From IMG/VR virus record IMGVR_UViG_3300001525_000014, positions 39,620 to 103,619 of that record: DNA of 64,000 nt; one strand, written 5' to 3'. The stretch is from a virus. A program made the translations under genes and the position numbers. The notes below the pieces were generated by a model. That model was not told the DNA's origin. It saw only the letters and a program-made list of their open reading frames with translations, and did not search any database. Below are positions 1-64,000 of this stretch, piece after piece (position 1 is the first letter of the stretch; each line of letters starts with the position of its first letter).

Positions 1-3000
1 ATATCTTTTAAGAACTAATCATATTTAGCTTTGTAAAGTAATTGTTTAGCAAGTGTGTTACCCTGTTTCTTCGTGTCAATCTTAGTAAGCTGTACAAGTT
101 TTGAAATATCATTTACAAATGGCTGTAATATATTCCAAGCTTTATAAACCTAAATCTAAGCTTTACAGAAATCTGGGTCTTTAAGCATATCTTCTTTACT
201 AGTGTATTTAAGAGCATAATTCTTAAGATACTTATCACTCTTAAACATACTGTTTATTATATCAATTCTTCTCTGATCATGATTAGTCTCGTTTGTATTA
301 GCAGCATTAATATCAGCATTAATATAGTTAAGCTCTCTACGTATATCAGGGTTATTGTATAGTTCGGAGTCACTTGTAATATTAATACCCAAATATCCAG
401 CTATATACTGCCTTAACGCTTTTTCTGTAGCATCCTTTTGTGCTCTATACTTACTCTTGGTTAAGTCTCTACCATAGTGACCACTAGCAGACTCTGCAGC
501 AAACGCCATATCCTTTATAATAGGCTATGTAATAAACCACACAGAATTATCTGCCTAGCCTGTTCTAACTAAGAAGTTAAGCATATTATATGTAAAACTG
601 TTTACATTTATCTTTGACACATATGGATCCTTTACGATATCACAGTGTGCATTAATAAACGCAGATAGCCAAGACATAACTGCATTACCATTCTTATCAT
701 CACGTAAATCAATACGTTTGAATGGAGTTTGCTTTGTAAAGTCAGTCTCTTTAAATTTAACACCATAAGCCATAGTAAGAGCCTAATTGGTTACATTAAG
801 AGCAAATGGTGCAATACCAAGCTTACCTGTGATATAATCTCTACGTCTATCGGTTTGTTCATGAAGTGTATAAAAGTTATATGGTAAAGTCTTTGTTGAA
901 CCAGCACTCTCAAATTGATTAGCGATACTCTCTACAAGTTCTGTATCATTATCAATAGACCTCATAGCTATCTGTATAGAGTTGTCGTTATCCTTAAGAA
1001 GGGTCATGTAGTTCTCGAGAAGCCTATTCTAGTAATACTACTTCTTGTCTTGAGTAAATTCTCTACTAGCCTTACCATCCTTAACGTCGTAAGCTAAAGA
1101 TGCTAAATACAACTTATCAATATCGAAGTCAGATCCGGTTACTTTCGTAAATTCTCTAGGAAGCATGATGGTATCCTTAACAACAGGAAGTACGTCTACA
1201 AATCTCAAAGCGTGTATAGAAGATTGAGCCTGAGTAGGAATACGATAACCAATGGTATTAGCTTTTACATCGCTTCTATTACCAATAATCTTATTATCAA
1301 ATAACCATTTCCTAGCCTAATCAAATGACATTCCTTCTGGTATTATGTGCTCGAAATAATCAATAGATATTACAGCGTCCATACTACCATCATTATTTAT
1401 AAACTAAAGTTGTTTGCCCTCATTAAGAGTCTGCCAGTTAATGAGTTTTCTAGATGCCGCTGGCAATTTATTGTATTCGTCGTCAGATATAACATTACCC
1501 TCCATTGCAAATACAGATCTCTGATAGAATGCGTTTCCAGGAGTTTTTACATCTACAATTCTCTTATTTAAAGCTGAAGTAAGAATACTTTCTATCCAGT
1601 GTGGATCAGATTGTGCGGCAAGTGGAACATTTAAATGCTTGCTACCATCTGCTTCAACTTTAATAGTAATAGCATCTATAGTGTTCTTGTTGGCATTTCT
1701 TGATGTAAGCTCATCATTTAAGAACTTAGCGAACTTCTAGATATCAAACTCATTGTCAGTAAAGAAAAGGTCGTTAACTTCTTTAACACCCATATCTGAC
1801 AGAGCGTTTATAGACCCCATAATGTTGTCAAGAATCTAAGTACCAGAAATAACTTCTCCGGTAAGAGAATCGCTATAATTAGCTCTATCTAAAATCAAAC
1901 TAGCAAGAGCCACTTTTGCGGTCTGTGTACCAAGATTCATTTCAATCTTGCCATTTGGGTCTGTATTAAGCTGTTTTCTAAGGTATCTAAGATCTTGTTT
2001 AAATGTTACAAATGGTTCTTCTATGCCTTTACCTTGCTTAAACTCAGAGTTGTGCTTATTACCAATCTTTACAGCAGAGTCAAACAAAAGCATATCTACA
2101 CCTTCATTTATCATCTTATTATATACCTTACCCATATCACCCATTGCTATAGATGGGAATATTGGGAATAAAGCCATCTTATTATAATAAGGAATGAGTA
2201 AACCTCCAAGTTGATCGTCATTTCTGTGACCAAATGCACTATATTTTTGCGCACCAACAATAAATTCCTATAGCTCTGCAAACGCGTCTACTTTTTGTCT
2301 AAACGTATACTGGCTTTTAGGGTCTCTGAGCATAGCAAATAATTGCTTAGCTTTATTGTTATACAAACCAAGCGACCTCAAAAGTTTCTCACACATCTTA
2401 TCTGTAATAAACGCAGAACCATCCGCTACATTTATTCCTTTTTCCGCATAAGCCTTATATTCTGCCTAATACTTCTTTGTTACCCTAGCTTTATCATTTT
2501 CGTCAAGATATTTATCTCTAAACTCTTCAAACTCTTTCTATGTATTGTGTTCTACGTAAGCTATTTTTGCTGCTTCAGCTTTACTTTTACCGCTACGTAC
2601 AAGCTTGTTATATATAGCTTCTTTAGTATTAGCTTGCACAAACATCTTCTCCACACTATTCTAATAAGCATCATCGATGTTTCCGTCGTGCATTTTATCA
2701 GCTTCTGAAGATACCATAAAGTCATCAACCTAAGCGCAAGTGTACTGAGACTCAGAGTCGTCCTAGAAGTCTGTTCTAGGATTAGCTCCTGTAGAAATAA
2801 GTCCGCCAAGACGCTTTAACTGGTCTGTTTGTCTATCCTCGAGCTCATTCTCGCTATACTTCCATTTATAGAATGCTGGGTGACCACCAAACAATCTCTC
2901 TACCTCTTGTACAGATATAATTGATCTTGTAGAGATGTCTGACATTATGGCAACAACTGCTGCCGCATTCATTTGCTCAAGCGTTGTAATACCTTCTGTT

Positions 3001-6000
3001 CCAGCTAAAGATTGTCTAATTGAGTTGAATTCATTCCAACTAAGACCAACGTTTTCTAATGAGTAATAGTTGTTTATATCACCCTTAATAAGACCGAGTT
3101 TTATAGCTTTTTTAAGCTCTTCTTTAAATTGTATATCAAGAACTCTAGCCATAATATTTCTCTATTGTTCTCGACTCTTATTAAAGAATTCTTCATCAGC
3201 GATTCTTAAGCACTCTTTACTACTCTTCTTAGGATCATTGAATTTAACTCTCTTTCCTTCATCATTAAGTATAGATGTGAGGGAAGAGAATCTTGTACCA
3301 TTAGGTTCAACTTTAACAGTCTCACCTTTACTGTTTGTGTACTTATTAGATGTATGATAATTCTTTATTTTAGCATTATCATCTATTGGTGTGTCGCCTT
3401 CAAAATAACCAAGCTGATGCATACATTCAAGTATAGCCGATTTCTCGTCTTTTGCATAATCAATAAAGATATCAAGCACTTGATCAGATGGACGCGCTAT
3501 AGTCTTACCAGTAGTATCTGTTACAATTCTAGGAAGAGCTCCAAGTAGCTCTTTTCTAATTGCTGCCTTCTAGTTGTTGTCGGAACTAGACATCAGTTTA
3601 CTTACAAGACGATAATCTATACCAGGAATTAAGAATCCATTAATAGCTTGGTCAGAAGCCTATAAATACATATACGTTTTCTTATCAGACATTGTAGGGT
3701 AAATAAGACCGCCACTAATCAACATTGTAACCTTAGACATATAATCCTCTACATCTGACACTTGGTTGTAATCTGATCCATAATCATCGTTTTGGTCAGT
3801 CTTGAAACCAGCATAGTTATTCATAAGGATCTTAGCCATCTTATTACCTTCATTCTAAGCAATTCTTCTAAGGACGACAGAATGCTTATTGTAACAGAAG
3901 TTTTGAATTCTCTGCTTAGCGGCATTTTCTGGATTTTCATCCTACATGTCTGCTAAAATGTCTGACACTGTATTATTCTCACCCTAAGTATAAGCTTTAT
4001 TGTTGTTGGTTAAGAGATTCATCATTTCATTCTTAACCTTATTATTCATTGATTGGTATTTTGCAAGCTCATTAACAAAGGAGTCTTTATTGTACAATGT
4101 ATCGAGATCTACATTTATCTATCCGGCATTTCCTATTACAGAATCAAGAAGTGTTAAGAATTTACTTAAGCTTACGAGTGTTGTTTCATTTAACATCTAT
4201 CTAAACGAATCTGCACTAAACTCTCCATATTTATTTACAAGCATGTAATTAATAGTGTCGCTATCAATCTGTATACCAATCTTATTAAGTGTTATGGTAA
4301 GCTTATCCATAACCTCAGACAACTAAGCCGGACTTGTAATATCGTAAGTATTGCTACCTATTTTTATTTCATTACCAGCATTAGCTTGCGTCCATATATC
4401 CTTAATCCAATTAGAAGTACGCTTAAAAATATCATTTCCAGGAGCATTGTAAACGACTCCTCTTCTATCTCTGTTAAATAATATTCTCCCTTTCTAGTCT
4501 CTTACAGTAGAAACAACGCCAGTGACACCATTAGCTAATCTCTTTGACCAGTCTTGCGAGAATTTAAGCGTGTCTCTATCAACAGATAAGTTAGACATTC
4601 TTACACTAACTCGACCATCTTTATCTGTAGATGATCTTGTCATCATAAAGTTGTATTTCTGTCCAACAAGAGCTTGGAATACCTACGTAACTATAGCTTC
4701 AGCATCGTAATTAATACCTTCACCAGTAGTCTTATTATAATTCTTGTATTGAGCCTAGAAGTATTCGTCAAATGTAGAATAAACGTAGAAGAACATTGGG
4801 TCTTGGGAAGCTAGCCTAGCTAATTCATCGTGAAGCTCTTGAACATTCTTTACATTATGGAGTTGTTCAAACATCTTACTAAACACTTCTGTCTGGGGCA
4901 TAAATCTAGGGTCGCCAAACAAGCTATGAGATGTATCTAATACAACACCTTCTTCATGACTGCTAGTATTGGCCCACTTAACATAAGGTACTGTACCGAA
5001 GAAGAATTTTGCCTTCTGCGATATACTCTAAAGCTTACTCATTTCGTAAGACTCTTTACCAACGTAATCCATATAAGCTCCAGCAGAACCTGCTTCAAGC
5101 TATTCCTGCATATCTTCATCATTAGTGTTTTTAACAACACCTTCCTTGCTTATGTTAGCAATCTTAGCATATACCCTATCTGCTATTACAGCAAAGTTTG
5201 GATAGTATATCTTTTTGCCTACAGCTACTCCGTTCTTATCAGTTATGAGCTCTTCCTTGCCTTGCTTAAAGATTTCCTAAAACGCTTTAGCTTGGGCTTC
5301 TGGTACAGGAATATCTGGATCTTCGCCCATAAGCTGCTTCATTGTATCTCCACCAATAAGCTTTTTAATATTTGTACCAGTAATAGTTAATTCGCTGATA
5401 TTGTTTCCAACTGCATCAACTCTACCTTCTTCAAGAGCTTTTTCTACTATATAGAAAGCGATTGTTTCAACACAGTCATTAAGCTACTCATTGTTTATAA
5501 TATTCTCAAAGCTATGTTTCATTCCAGTCTTTTGGTTATAGACATCATAATGAAGAACGTCTCCAAACTTTTCTTTAAAACGTTCAAGATTTTCTTTACG
5601 AATCTTACTCCCAGCTTTAGTCTTGTACCAGCCAGTAGCCATTATAGCAGATAAAAGTGTAAGTCTAATATTACCGAGGTCTTTAGCGAATTGTACACCA
5701 GCTTTAATCTTCTAGAAAAGAGCTATAATCTTATTGTCTGAGAACTCGTTATCGTCATAGTTGTTCTGCGCATCCATGTATAGATTAGCTAAGCCTTCTG
5801 CGATTTCTGTATCTGACAACTTGTCGTTTCCTTCATGCTTCTTATACCAATCGTAGATCTTCTGTCTTTCTGATGGTCTTAATAATAATTCTAATACCCT
5901 ATGAAATGCCTCGTGATATTGTACACCATCTACAACTCTGTTACCAATGTATACCATATCGGTCATACACTTACCTGCAAGAGCCATATCCGCTGGTACT

Positions 6001-63725: not shown

Positions 63726-63726
63726 A

Positions 63727-64000
63727 ATGGGAACAATAACAGAATACCAATACAAGAATAATGTGTACAAATACCTTGGAGTTGGGAGATTTAAAGATAG
63801 TACAGATCAATGGGTCGATGCAGTAATGTACGAAAGAGATAATCACGTATACATGCGCGAAATAAAGGATTTCTTTAAGAAGTTTGAGCTCGTTAACTCT
63901 TATTGTGATAAAGGTATTTTAAACTCAATAGCTGATTTAATAGATCCAAAATATGAACCAGCAGAAGAGAAAAACAAGAATCAAATAAGCAATAATTAGA
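63727..64000 (+). CDS. DUF1653-like protein, 3' partial
   Basis: EYQYKNNVYKYLGVGRFKDSTDQWVDAVMYERDNHVYMREIKDFFKKFE resembles the DUF1653 pattern from memory. The apparent stop at 63997-63999 is TAG, so the frame probably continues beyond the window. Confidence 0.5.

Follow-up and report, generated by a model that had tools for sequence, protein, structure and literature searches.

In-frame TAG codons behave as glutamine in the late genes of a crAss-like phage that carries a CUA suppressor tRNA beside a homing endonuclease gene

We analysed a 64,000-nt stretch of DNA (the window) from the IMG/VR virus record IMGVR_UViG_3300001525_000014, covering positions 39,620 to 103,619 of that record, for which an earlier note, made from the letters alone, had claimed that TAG (amber) is read as a sense codon. 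The features of the window, with protein genes taken from simple longest-ORF (open reading frame) calls, are collected in Table 1. A long block of co-oriented late genes fills most of the window, and a cluster of tRNA genes with a GIY-YIG homing endonuclease gene lies beyond it, followed by a right end in which TAG is rare. The signature major capsid protein (MCP), portal, terminase large subunit (TerL) and auxiliary capsid protein of the Crassvirales were all present, and close relatives were found within the family Suoliviridae. The best DNA matches were to Burzaovirus (Suoliviridae) at ~84%, and nucleotide identity over the aligned parts was ~84-85% with two RefSeq genomes, cr124_1 (NC_055899.1, Burzaovirus faecalis) and cr7_1 (NC_055895.1, Burzaovirus coli), which belong to the Suoliviridae, the 'delta' group of Yutin et al. 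2021. We consider it highly probable that the window represents ~64 kb of a ~100-kb crAss-like phage (Crassvirales, Suoliviridae, near Burzaovirus) in whose late genes UAG is decoded as glutamine (Gln).

Table 1. Features of the window (positions on the 64,000-nt stretch; Gln-type codons are TAG, CAA and CAG)
Feature	Position	Strand	Description
Late gene block	1..58124	-	32 co-oriented genes: virion, packaging, lysis, giant proteins; 346 TAG, 0 TAA/TGA in frame
Giant protein	1..12896	-	4,298 codons, 86 TAG; 3' end cut by window start; homologue of cr7_1 gp32 (5,443 aa)
Virion structural protein	17089..21765	-	1,558 aa, 35 TAG; cr124_1 homologue annotated 'virion structural protein'
216-aa protein	23736..24386	-	N-terminal hydrophobic segment; adjoins DUF5675 gene; TAG 7 of 13 Gln-type codons (cr124_1 12 of 14)
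2,497-aa protein	25046..32539	-	52 TAG
1,388-aa protein	32536..36702	-	16 TAG; metallophosphoesterase-like motifs GD, GNND and GGHKH flank TAG 33205-33207 on both sides
Auxiliary capsid protein	37692..38822	-	376 aa; homologue of PhiCrAss001 gp36; 0 TAG; Gln = CAG in 11 of 11
Major capsid protein (MCP)	41915..43450	-	0 TAG; Gln = 16 CAG + 2 CAA; phrog_11589, E = 1.4e-120
Portal	47114..49585	-	823 aa, 17 TAG
Terminase large subunit (TerL)	49589..51652	-	687 aa, 10 TAG
Genes with highest TAG share of Gln-type codons	52167..55155	-	52167..52526, 3 of 3; 52489..54591, 15 of 20; 54670..55155 (DUF7841), 7 of 8
dUTPase	58205..58750	-	PF00692, E = 7e-22; no TAG; first gene downstream of tRNA/endonuclease cluster
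GIY-YIG homing endonuclease	58768..59553	-	PF01541; no TAG; not at the same site in cr124_1 and cr7_1
Amber-suppressor tRNA, anticodon CUA	59572..59644	-	ARAGORN; Rfam tRNA 46 bits
tRNA-Met (CAU), initiator type	59701..59774	-	ARAGORN; Rfam 64 bits; C1xA72 mismatch
Aberrant tRNA-like gene	59936..60009	-	Rfam 38.4 bits; 3-bp anticodon stem, 8-nt loop
74-aa gene	60736..60960	-	1 TAG (60877..60879); upstream of tRNA cluster; block 60025..61815 otherwise TAG-free; cr124_1 homologue 3 TAG
156-aa gene, divergent operon	62488..62958	+	TAG 8 of 11 Gln-type codons; cr124_1 homologue (44749..45219) 6 of 9
90-codon ORF	63727..63999	+	reaches TAG 63997..63999, the last full codon of the window

The reading frames of the late genes were examined for each stop codon. 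Across their 19,203 codons, the 346 in-frame TAG were accompanied by no TAA and no TGA at all, while ~1,462 TAA and TGA were expected from the off-frame rate (TAA 47 and TGA 29 per 1000 in the other two frames of the same strand; log10 P about -660). With the single TAG of the 74-aa gene and the eight of the 156-aa gene the window holds ~355, close to the ~350 that had been claimed. When only TAA and TGA were taken as stops (code 15), 97.2% of the window was coding in 44 ORFs, nearly all of them on the minus strand and the longest of 4,298 aa. Under code 11 the window broke into 85 ORFs covering 46.8%, none longer than 512 aa. Code 4, in which TGA is read as Trp, reached 52.4%, with not one in-frame TGA in the late genes to read, and a control with TAA as sense gave 69% coding and short ORFs on both strands. 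Hence, of the codes compared as the earlier note had proposed, only TAG as sense restored the density; in the region 1..58200 it was 98.9% with code 15 and 44.5% with code 11. The results confirmed that TAG is a sense codon.

The gene boundaries agreed with this. Among the 31 late genes that end inside the window, 22 stopped on TAA and nine on TGA, and the claim that no gene ends on TAG held wherever the end of a gene falls within the window. The overlaps between stops and following starts were found where they had been described, as ATGA at 23736, 24624, 25046, 32536, 40342 and 45093 and as TAATG at 47114. The TAG counts given earlier for the giant protein (86 in 4,298 codons), the 2,497-aa protein (52), the virion structural protein (35 in 1,558) and the 1,388-aa protein (16) were reproduced exactly, whereas the portal, credited with 16, has 17. 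Recognizable protein continued beyond TAG as proposed: TAG 33205-33207 is codon 1166 of 1,388 and the GGHKH motif starts at residue 1193, 27 residues on, and in TerL 105 residues follow TAG 49907-49909, which is codon 582 of 687. TAG thus occurs within conserved, essential genes (TerL, portal, giant proteins) with TAA and TGA absent in frame, which is the pattern of a code-15 phage.

The amino acid was read from codon alignments. Window proteins, with each TAG masked as X, were aligned to the six-frame ORFs of relatives and the codon opposite each TAG was recorded. We found that 173 of the 327 amino-acid-facing TAG sites in three close relatives faced Gln, in line with the expectation that reassigned TAG is usually Gln, and 21 faced Lys. 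Against cr124_1, 293 window TAG sites were opposite TAG (135), CAG (45) or CAA (31), with every other codon at 10 or fewer (GAA 10, AAA 8, TAT 7); Tyr codons totalled 8 and Trp 1. The reverse direction gave the same picture, the TAGs of cr124_1 facing 49 CAA and 39 CAG in the window, and the cr7_1 alignment repeated the TAG/CAA/CAG pattern. Even contig L009, whose TerL is 98% identical in the masked alignment (99% by database search), had TAG at 37, CAA at 15 and CAG at 9 of 76 sites. TAG-to-CAA exchange, which takes two changes, was about as frequent as TAG-to-CAG, indicating synonymous exchange rather than mutational proximity, and codons one step from TAG (for Tyr, Trp, Leu, Ser, Lys and Glu) were rare opposite it.

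A likelihood test, which set the residues opposite TAG against each amino acid's own substitution profile from those alignments, ranked Gln first, ahead of Glu by 595 nats in the close relatives and by 23 nats in the distant ones. The latter were cr125_1, Azobacteroides phage ProJPt-Bp1 and PhiCrAssBcn23, in which Gln stood opposite 17 of 106 TAG sites compared with a background of 3.6%; the count that pairs with the 327 sites of the close relatives was 17 of 93. ProJPt-Bp1 and PhiCrAssBcn23 have no in-frame TAG in the aligned genes and therefore use the standard code; their alignments crossed all window TAG sites, over 676-682 aa in TerL and 838-856 aa in the portal, and ran straight through rather than stopping at TAG. 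Collectively, the codon comparisons confirmed that TAG, CAA and CAG replace one another freely whichever way the comparison is made, and, as far as alignments can tell, TAG behaves as glutamine. Every refuting condition set by the earlier note came out for amber reassignment to Gln.

Not all genes use TAG alike. In the late block it made up 36% of the Gln-type codons (346, beside 361 CAA and 253 CAG), or 18 per 1000 codons, and was evenly spread along genes with no special +4 base or positional bias. The share per gene ranged from 0 to 100% and followed that of the cr124_1 orthologues (rho = 0.83, a correlation due in part to shared ancestry); its relation to CAG preference was not significant (rho = -0.26, p = 0.23). 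The only TAG-free late genes were those of the MCP and the auxiliary capsid protein, whose 29 Gln codons include no TAG (P = 3e-4 and 7e-3, respectively), and this pair used CAG in 27 of the 29 although CAA outnumbers CAG elsewhere. Their cr124_1 orthologues were likewise TAG-free and used CAG only, and a 2026 preprint describes a TAG-free MCP in another amber-recoded crAss-like phage. The avoidance of TAG in the genes of these two proteins, the most abundant of the virion, suggests that suppression may be a slower or leakier form of decoding, selected against where yield matters most. The auxiliary capsid protein was recognized with a deeper profile from a representative search, which matched PhiCrAss001 gp36 (PDB 7QOF) at E = 2.8e-8; PDB searches with the sequence itself and with a shallow profile gave no match. 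An AlphaFold model of this protein from a shallow alignment was poor (predicted local distance difference test, pLDDT, 46) and was dropped for the fold search.

The statement that TAG is a sense codon across the whole window was borne out for the late block, but usage was uneven, the two capsid genes and most genes in 58205..64000 being without it. At the right end, the dUTPase and GIY-YIG genes and the block 60025..61815 were TAG-free save for the one TAG of the 74-aa gene. The complete relative cr124_1 has a replication module (14174..45614) of ~41 genes without TAG in their bodies. In seven of these, TAG occurs 1-24 codons before the annotated TAA or TGA, and a TAG just ahead of the annotated stop points to true TAG stops over-extended by code-15 calling, which suggests that the RefSeq coding sequences of these seven genes are over-extended and may really end on TAG. 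One gene of that stretch, 44749..45219, is rich in TAG and is the homologue of the 156-aa gene. It is very probable that TAG is read in two ways within this group of phages, according to the module, and which of them applies presumably depends on the time of expression; published descriptions agree with this. The 156-aa gene belongs to an operon that is otherwise free of TAG, and its product would be untranslatable until the suppressor is active. The low-TAG right end, the TAG-free capsid genes and the suppressor tRNA had all been absent from the earlier note.

The tRNA with anticodon CUA folds into a class I cloverleaf whose anticodon stem has 5 bp and whose variable region is short, and its acceptor end carries U1.G72, G2:C71 and A73. 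Across suppressor and tRNA-Gln sequences the cloverleaf was kept by compensatory changes at 14 of 21 pairs. Of 122 bacterial tRNA-Gln, 113 begin with U1, compared with 1 of the 22 tRNAs of other types, and in the same 122 the 1:72 pair was U:A in 106 and U:G in six and the discriminator was A in 68, so that U1, the weak 1:72 pair, A73 and U35 of the CUA tRNA fall inside the tRNA-Gln range. Its short variable region excludes the bacterial long-arm Tyr, Ser and Leu types. The label 'tRNA-Pyl' that ARAGORN attaches to a CUA anticodon is a convention only: the cloverleaf is ordinary, no pyl genes were seen among the scanned proteins, and few TAG sites face Lys. Global identity to 36 phage tRNAs allowed no isotype to be assigned. 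The sequence recurred, identical except at nt 72, in four other viral contigs.

Two further elements lie beside the suppressor. The mismatch C1xA72 of the neighbouring tRNA-Met is typical of bacterial initiator tRNA, and its sequence is presumably near that of the E. coli initiator; the phage seems to have an initiator tRNA gene of its own next to that of the suppressor. A different tRNA-Met is found elsewhere in the genomes of cr124_1 and cr7_1. The aberrant tRNA-like gene scored above the Rfam tRNA threshold but was not called by ARAGORN at default settings. It has normal acceptor, D and T arms, whereas the 3-bp anticodon stem closes an 8-nt loop (GAUAUAAA) with a U/C polymorphism. It is 97.5-98.8% conserved in cr124_1, cr7_1 and contig L132, compared with 84-88% for its surroundings.

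We compared the suppressor locus among relatives. A tRNA-Gln-like suppressor, type A, lies at the same site in cr124_1, in cr7_1 and in another five Burzaovirus-like IMG/VR contigs (one more match was cr7_1's own), directly before the dUTPase gene and without an endonuclease. The suppressor of the window, type B, is only 67% identical to type A and is followed by the GIY-YIG gene. The first 385 nt of that gene were 83-85% identical in contigs L130, L131 and L133, where the tRNA was identical but for nt 72 and the flanking proteins were only 44-58% identical to those of the window; the type B tRNA is therefore conserved far better than its flanks. Contig L009 does not extend to the tRNA locus. 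The CUA tRNA and the GIY-YIG gene look like one unit, which suggests a mobile cassette. It is possible, though we hold it to be doubtful, that the determinant of the code change is itself mobile, the type B tRNA travelling with the homing endonuclease and having replaced the type A suppressor in this lineage. If that were true, homing endonucleases would spread or exchange amber-suppressor tRNAs among crAss-like phages and so open a lateral route for an alternative genetic code.

As a mechanism, we propose that the phage CUA tRNA would be charged with Gln by the host glutaminyl-tRNA synthetase (GlnRS), since it keeps U35 and the acceptor-end features usual in tRNA-Gln (U1, weak 1:72 pair, G2:C71 and A73), and that the accumulated tRNA would out-compete host release factor 1 (RF1) at UAG. 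Genes needed before the tRNA accumulates would have to be TAG-free, and in the complete relative these would be the genes of the replication module, where TAG would still be a true stop. Virion and lysis genes with TAG would become translatable only later, as in the 'code switch as late-gene timer' of Borges et al. (bioRxiv 10.1101/2021.08.26.457843). The late block is headed by the CUA tRNA, which lies among mostly TAG-free genes.

Several observations weigh against this proposal. The right 5.8 kb is TAG-poor, yet two TAG-bearing genes (60736..60960 and 62488..62958) lie there outside the late block, so that the window, which holds almost only the late domain, shows no clean division into two; in the complete cr124_1 the two-domain pattern is clear. 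Overall likeness of the CUA tRNA to tRNA-Gln was not found, a bacterial tRNA-Gln profile giving it 3.5 bits. The same profile gave 59.7 bits to the suppressor of cr124_1 and cr7_1, 32.7 to that of cr125_1 and up to 19.6 to non-Gln tRNAs, although its training set was retrieved with a D-arm motif from the cr124_1 and cr125_1 suppressors and hence favours those. We infer charging with Gln from the codon comparisons, U35 and a few acceptor-end identity nucleotides. Neither a release factor nor an aminoacyl-tRNA synthetase was found among the proteins scanned, a subset only, with ~40 kb of the genome lying outside the window. Finally, neutral recoding would give the same TAG/CAA/CAG pattern as functional recoding.

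This last point leads to the alternative that TAG means Gln through the phage tRNA but has no regulatory role, having arisen by neutral 'codon capture' where the genome is rich in AT and TAG stops are few. CAG-to-TAG and CAA-to-TAG changes would then drift in wherever the tRNA is present, and early genes would be TAG-free since TAG is lethal there. We regard this as a real possibility, if on balance an unlikely one. It would account for the even spread of TAG without special +4 context, for its rapid turnover with CAA and CAG even between proteins 97-99% identical, and for the lower conservation of TAG sites in distant homologues, where 16% face Gln compared with 27% for CAA and CAG sites; depletion followed by detoxification is also the evolutionary route proposed by Borges et al. 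It fits less well with a TAG share that differs from gene to gene between 0 and 100% and is conserved in relatives (partly by shared ancestry), with the exclusion of TAG from capsid genes, and with the finding of Borges et al. that lysis-associated families are significantly TAG-biased in this phage type.

That the host supplies the suppression, through a suppressor of its own or a code-15 host, so that the phage tRNA is dispensable, is very improbable. Recoded crAss-like genomes without a detectable suppressor tRNA are noted by Yutin et al. and by a 2026 preprint on a Segatella phage. However, a CUA tRNA occupies this locus in the window and in every close relative examined, its conservation is far above that of its flanks, and the hosts of such phages use the standard code according to the literature.

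A phage tRNA that inserts some other residue (Glu, Lys, Tyr, Trp, Ser, Leu or pyrrolysine) has slightly less chance still. The idea draws on the divergence of the suppressor from the tRNA-Gln-like one of cr124_1 and cr7_1, on the failure of the tRNA-Gln profile to recognize it and on the ARAGORN label. However, the codon alignments use the window's own TAGs and give Gln by a very large margin, and the TAG/CAA/CAG exchanges against the 98%-identical relative are recent events. The class I structure removes the bacterial Tyr, Ser and Leu types. tRNA-Pyl differs in anticodon stem length and D-loop size from the CUA tRNA, which has a 5-bp stem and a normal-sized D-loop, and Lys is opposite only 21 of the 327 TAG sites.

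The notion that the TAGs are real stops, the genes being pseudogene fragments, products of faulty assembly or series of short genes in one frame, for which the 85 short ORFs of code 11 might speak, is refuted by the lack of TAA and TGA in 19,203 codons where ~1,460 were expected, by protein conservation across every TAG, standard-code relatives included, by the alignment of window TAG sites with Gln codons inside uninterrupted ORFs, and by 7,878 TerL homologues at E <= 1e-10, of which the best 120 listed are full-length and 94-99% identical. We retain the reading of TAG as a glutamine codon of the late genes, presumably decoded by the phage's own tRNA.

Several other genes deserve mention. Borges et al. 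report TAG bias for a spanin family, to which the 216-aa protein possibly belongs. A Pfam search of the 1,388-aa protein gave no Metallophos domain at E<0.01, and only the motifs can be seen; the homologue in a relative is annotated 'phosphatase'. When ten mid-block proteins were searched against PHROGs, the MCP was the only one named. The homologues of the 90-codon ORF at the right edge measure 55-84 aa and diverge ahead of the C-terminus. Exact patterns from the DNA of its 3' end had no match in viral or metagenome contigs, and exact look-ups meant to lead past the right edge, of three window proteins and of the identical database protein P0121, found no contig. Some near-identical metagenome TerL homologues are 1,062 aa long with intein and LAGLIDADG domains (PF14890, PF14528), and the 687-aa TerL of the window is intein-free. 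In cr7_1 a reverse transcriptase gene (4850..5809) adjoins a tail protein gene and may form a diversity-generating retroelement; no counterpart was seen at the matching place in the window (~56.5-58.1 kb), and the tail-fibre-like gene there (56664..58124) is without a near match in cr124_1. An annotated transfer-messenger RNA (tmRNA)-like gene is present in cr124_1 (34357..34713), cr7_1 (20629..20985) and cr125_1 (6126..6575), in the part of the genome outside the window, and ARAGORN also calls a permuted tmRNA with a tag peptide there.

The assignment of TAG to Gln in the window is correct and important for annotation, and it is already known, because TAG=Gln in crAss-like phages has been published and validated by peptides and the nearest RefSeq genomes are annotated accordingly. 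The earlier note rightly said that amber reassignment had been described: Yutin et al. 2021 (PMC7886860) reported that the delta group, now Suoliviridae, has suppressor tRNAs and uses TAG=Gln, for the most part in late genes; Peters et al. 2022 (PMC9523058) found mass spectrometry peptides with Gln at TAG in two crAss-like phages; and Borges et al. (bioRxiv 10.1101/2021.08.26.457843) described crAss-like phages of ~105 kb in which TAG is recoded, with code 15 in structural and lysis genes and replication genes compatible with the standard code. The public protein database likewise holds many full-length, code-15-translated TerL sequences 94-99% identical to that of the window (best 120 of 7,878). 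With the reassignment described in 2021, the late-gene bias in 2021-22 and the peptide proof in 2022, the present case adds nothing new in kind. In practice code 11 shatters nearly all late genes, into ~85 short ORFs over 47% of the window as opposed to ~44 genes over 97%, so recognition of code 15 is a precondition for any functional reading of the sequence. Two observations go slightly beyond the papers cited, namely that Gln in the two abundant capsid proteins, the MCP and the auxiliary protein of the gp36 type, is encoded by CAG to the exclusion of TAG and, but for two codons, of CAA, and that two unrelated-looking types of suppressor tRNA occupy one locus, one of them linked to a homing endonuclease.

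Compared with known systems, the phages of Borges et al. resemble the window in the code-15 late genes and in the phage suppressor tRNA that they carry, and some of their lysis-associated families are TAG-biased; the preprint version (bioRxiv 10.1101/2021.08.26.457843) does not discuss the avoidance of TAG by capsid genes or a link between homing endonuclease and suppressor tRNA. The nearest genomes, cr124_1 and cr7_1, share the gene order of the window, with protein identities of 98% for the MCP and 92% for TerL. Their RefSeq records already annotate long TAG-containing late genes, their MCP and auxiliary capsid homologue are without TAG, and a CUA tRNA, annotated 'tRNA-Gln', lies directly upstream of the dUTPase gene. 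They differ in that this suppressor is of the other sequence type (67% identity), that the extra GIY-YIG endonuclease gene and the initiator-type tRNA-Met are found at the tRNA locus of the window only, and that several tail and fibre genes have diverged or lack a counterpart (identity is 30% for g28, and nothing matches g32).

A cellular precedent for the proposed decoding is E. coli supE (glnV44), a class I tRNA-Gln whose CUA anticodon lets it insert Gln at UAG against RF1, U35 and the weak U1:72 pair being identity features for GlnRS. supE came from a cellular tRNA-Gln by point mutation and its suppression is only partial, whereas the tRNA of the window is phage-encoded, has divergent D and T arms and would serve hundreds of sense sites. 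For the neighbouring gene the closest parallel is SegB of phage T4, a GIY-YIG homing endonuclease encoded in a tRNA gene cluster, which reportedly gives the tRNA region an advantage in inheritance during mixed infection. Both phages have a GIY-YIG gene next to tRNA genes; unlike in T4, the cargo in the window would be a suppressor tRNA that changes the genetic code.

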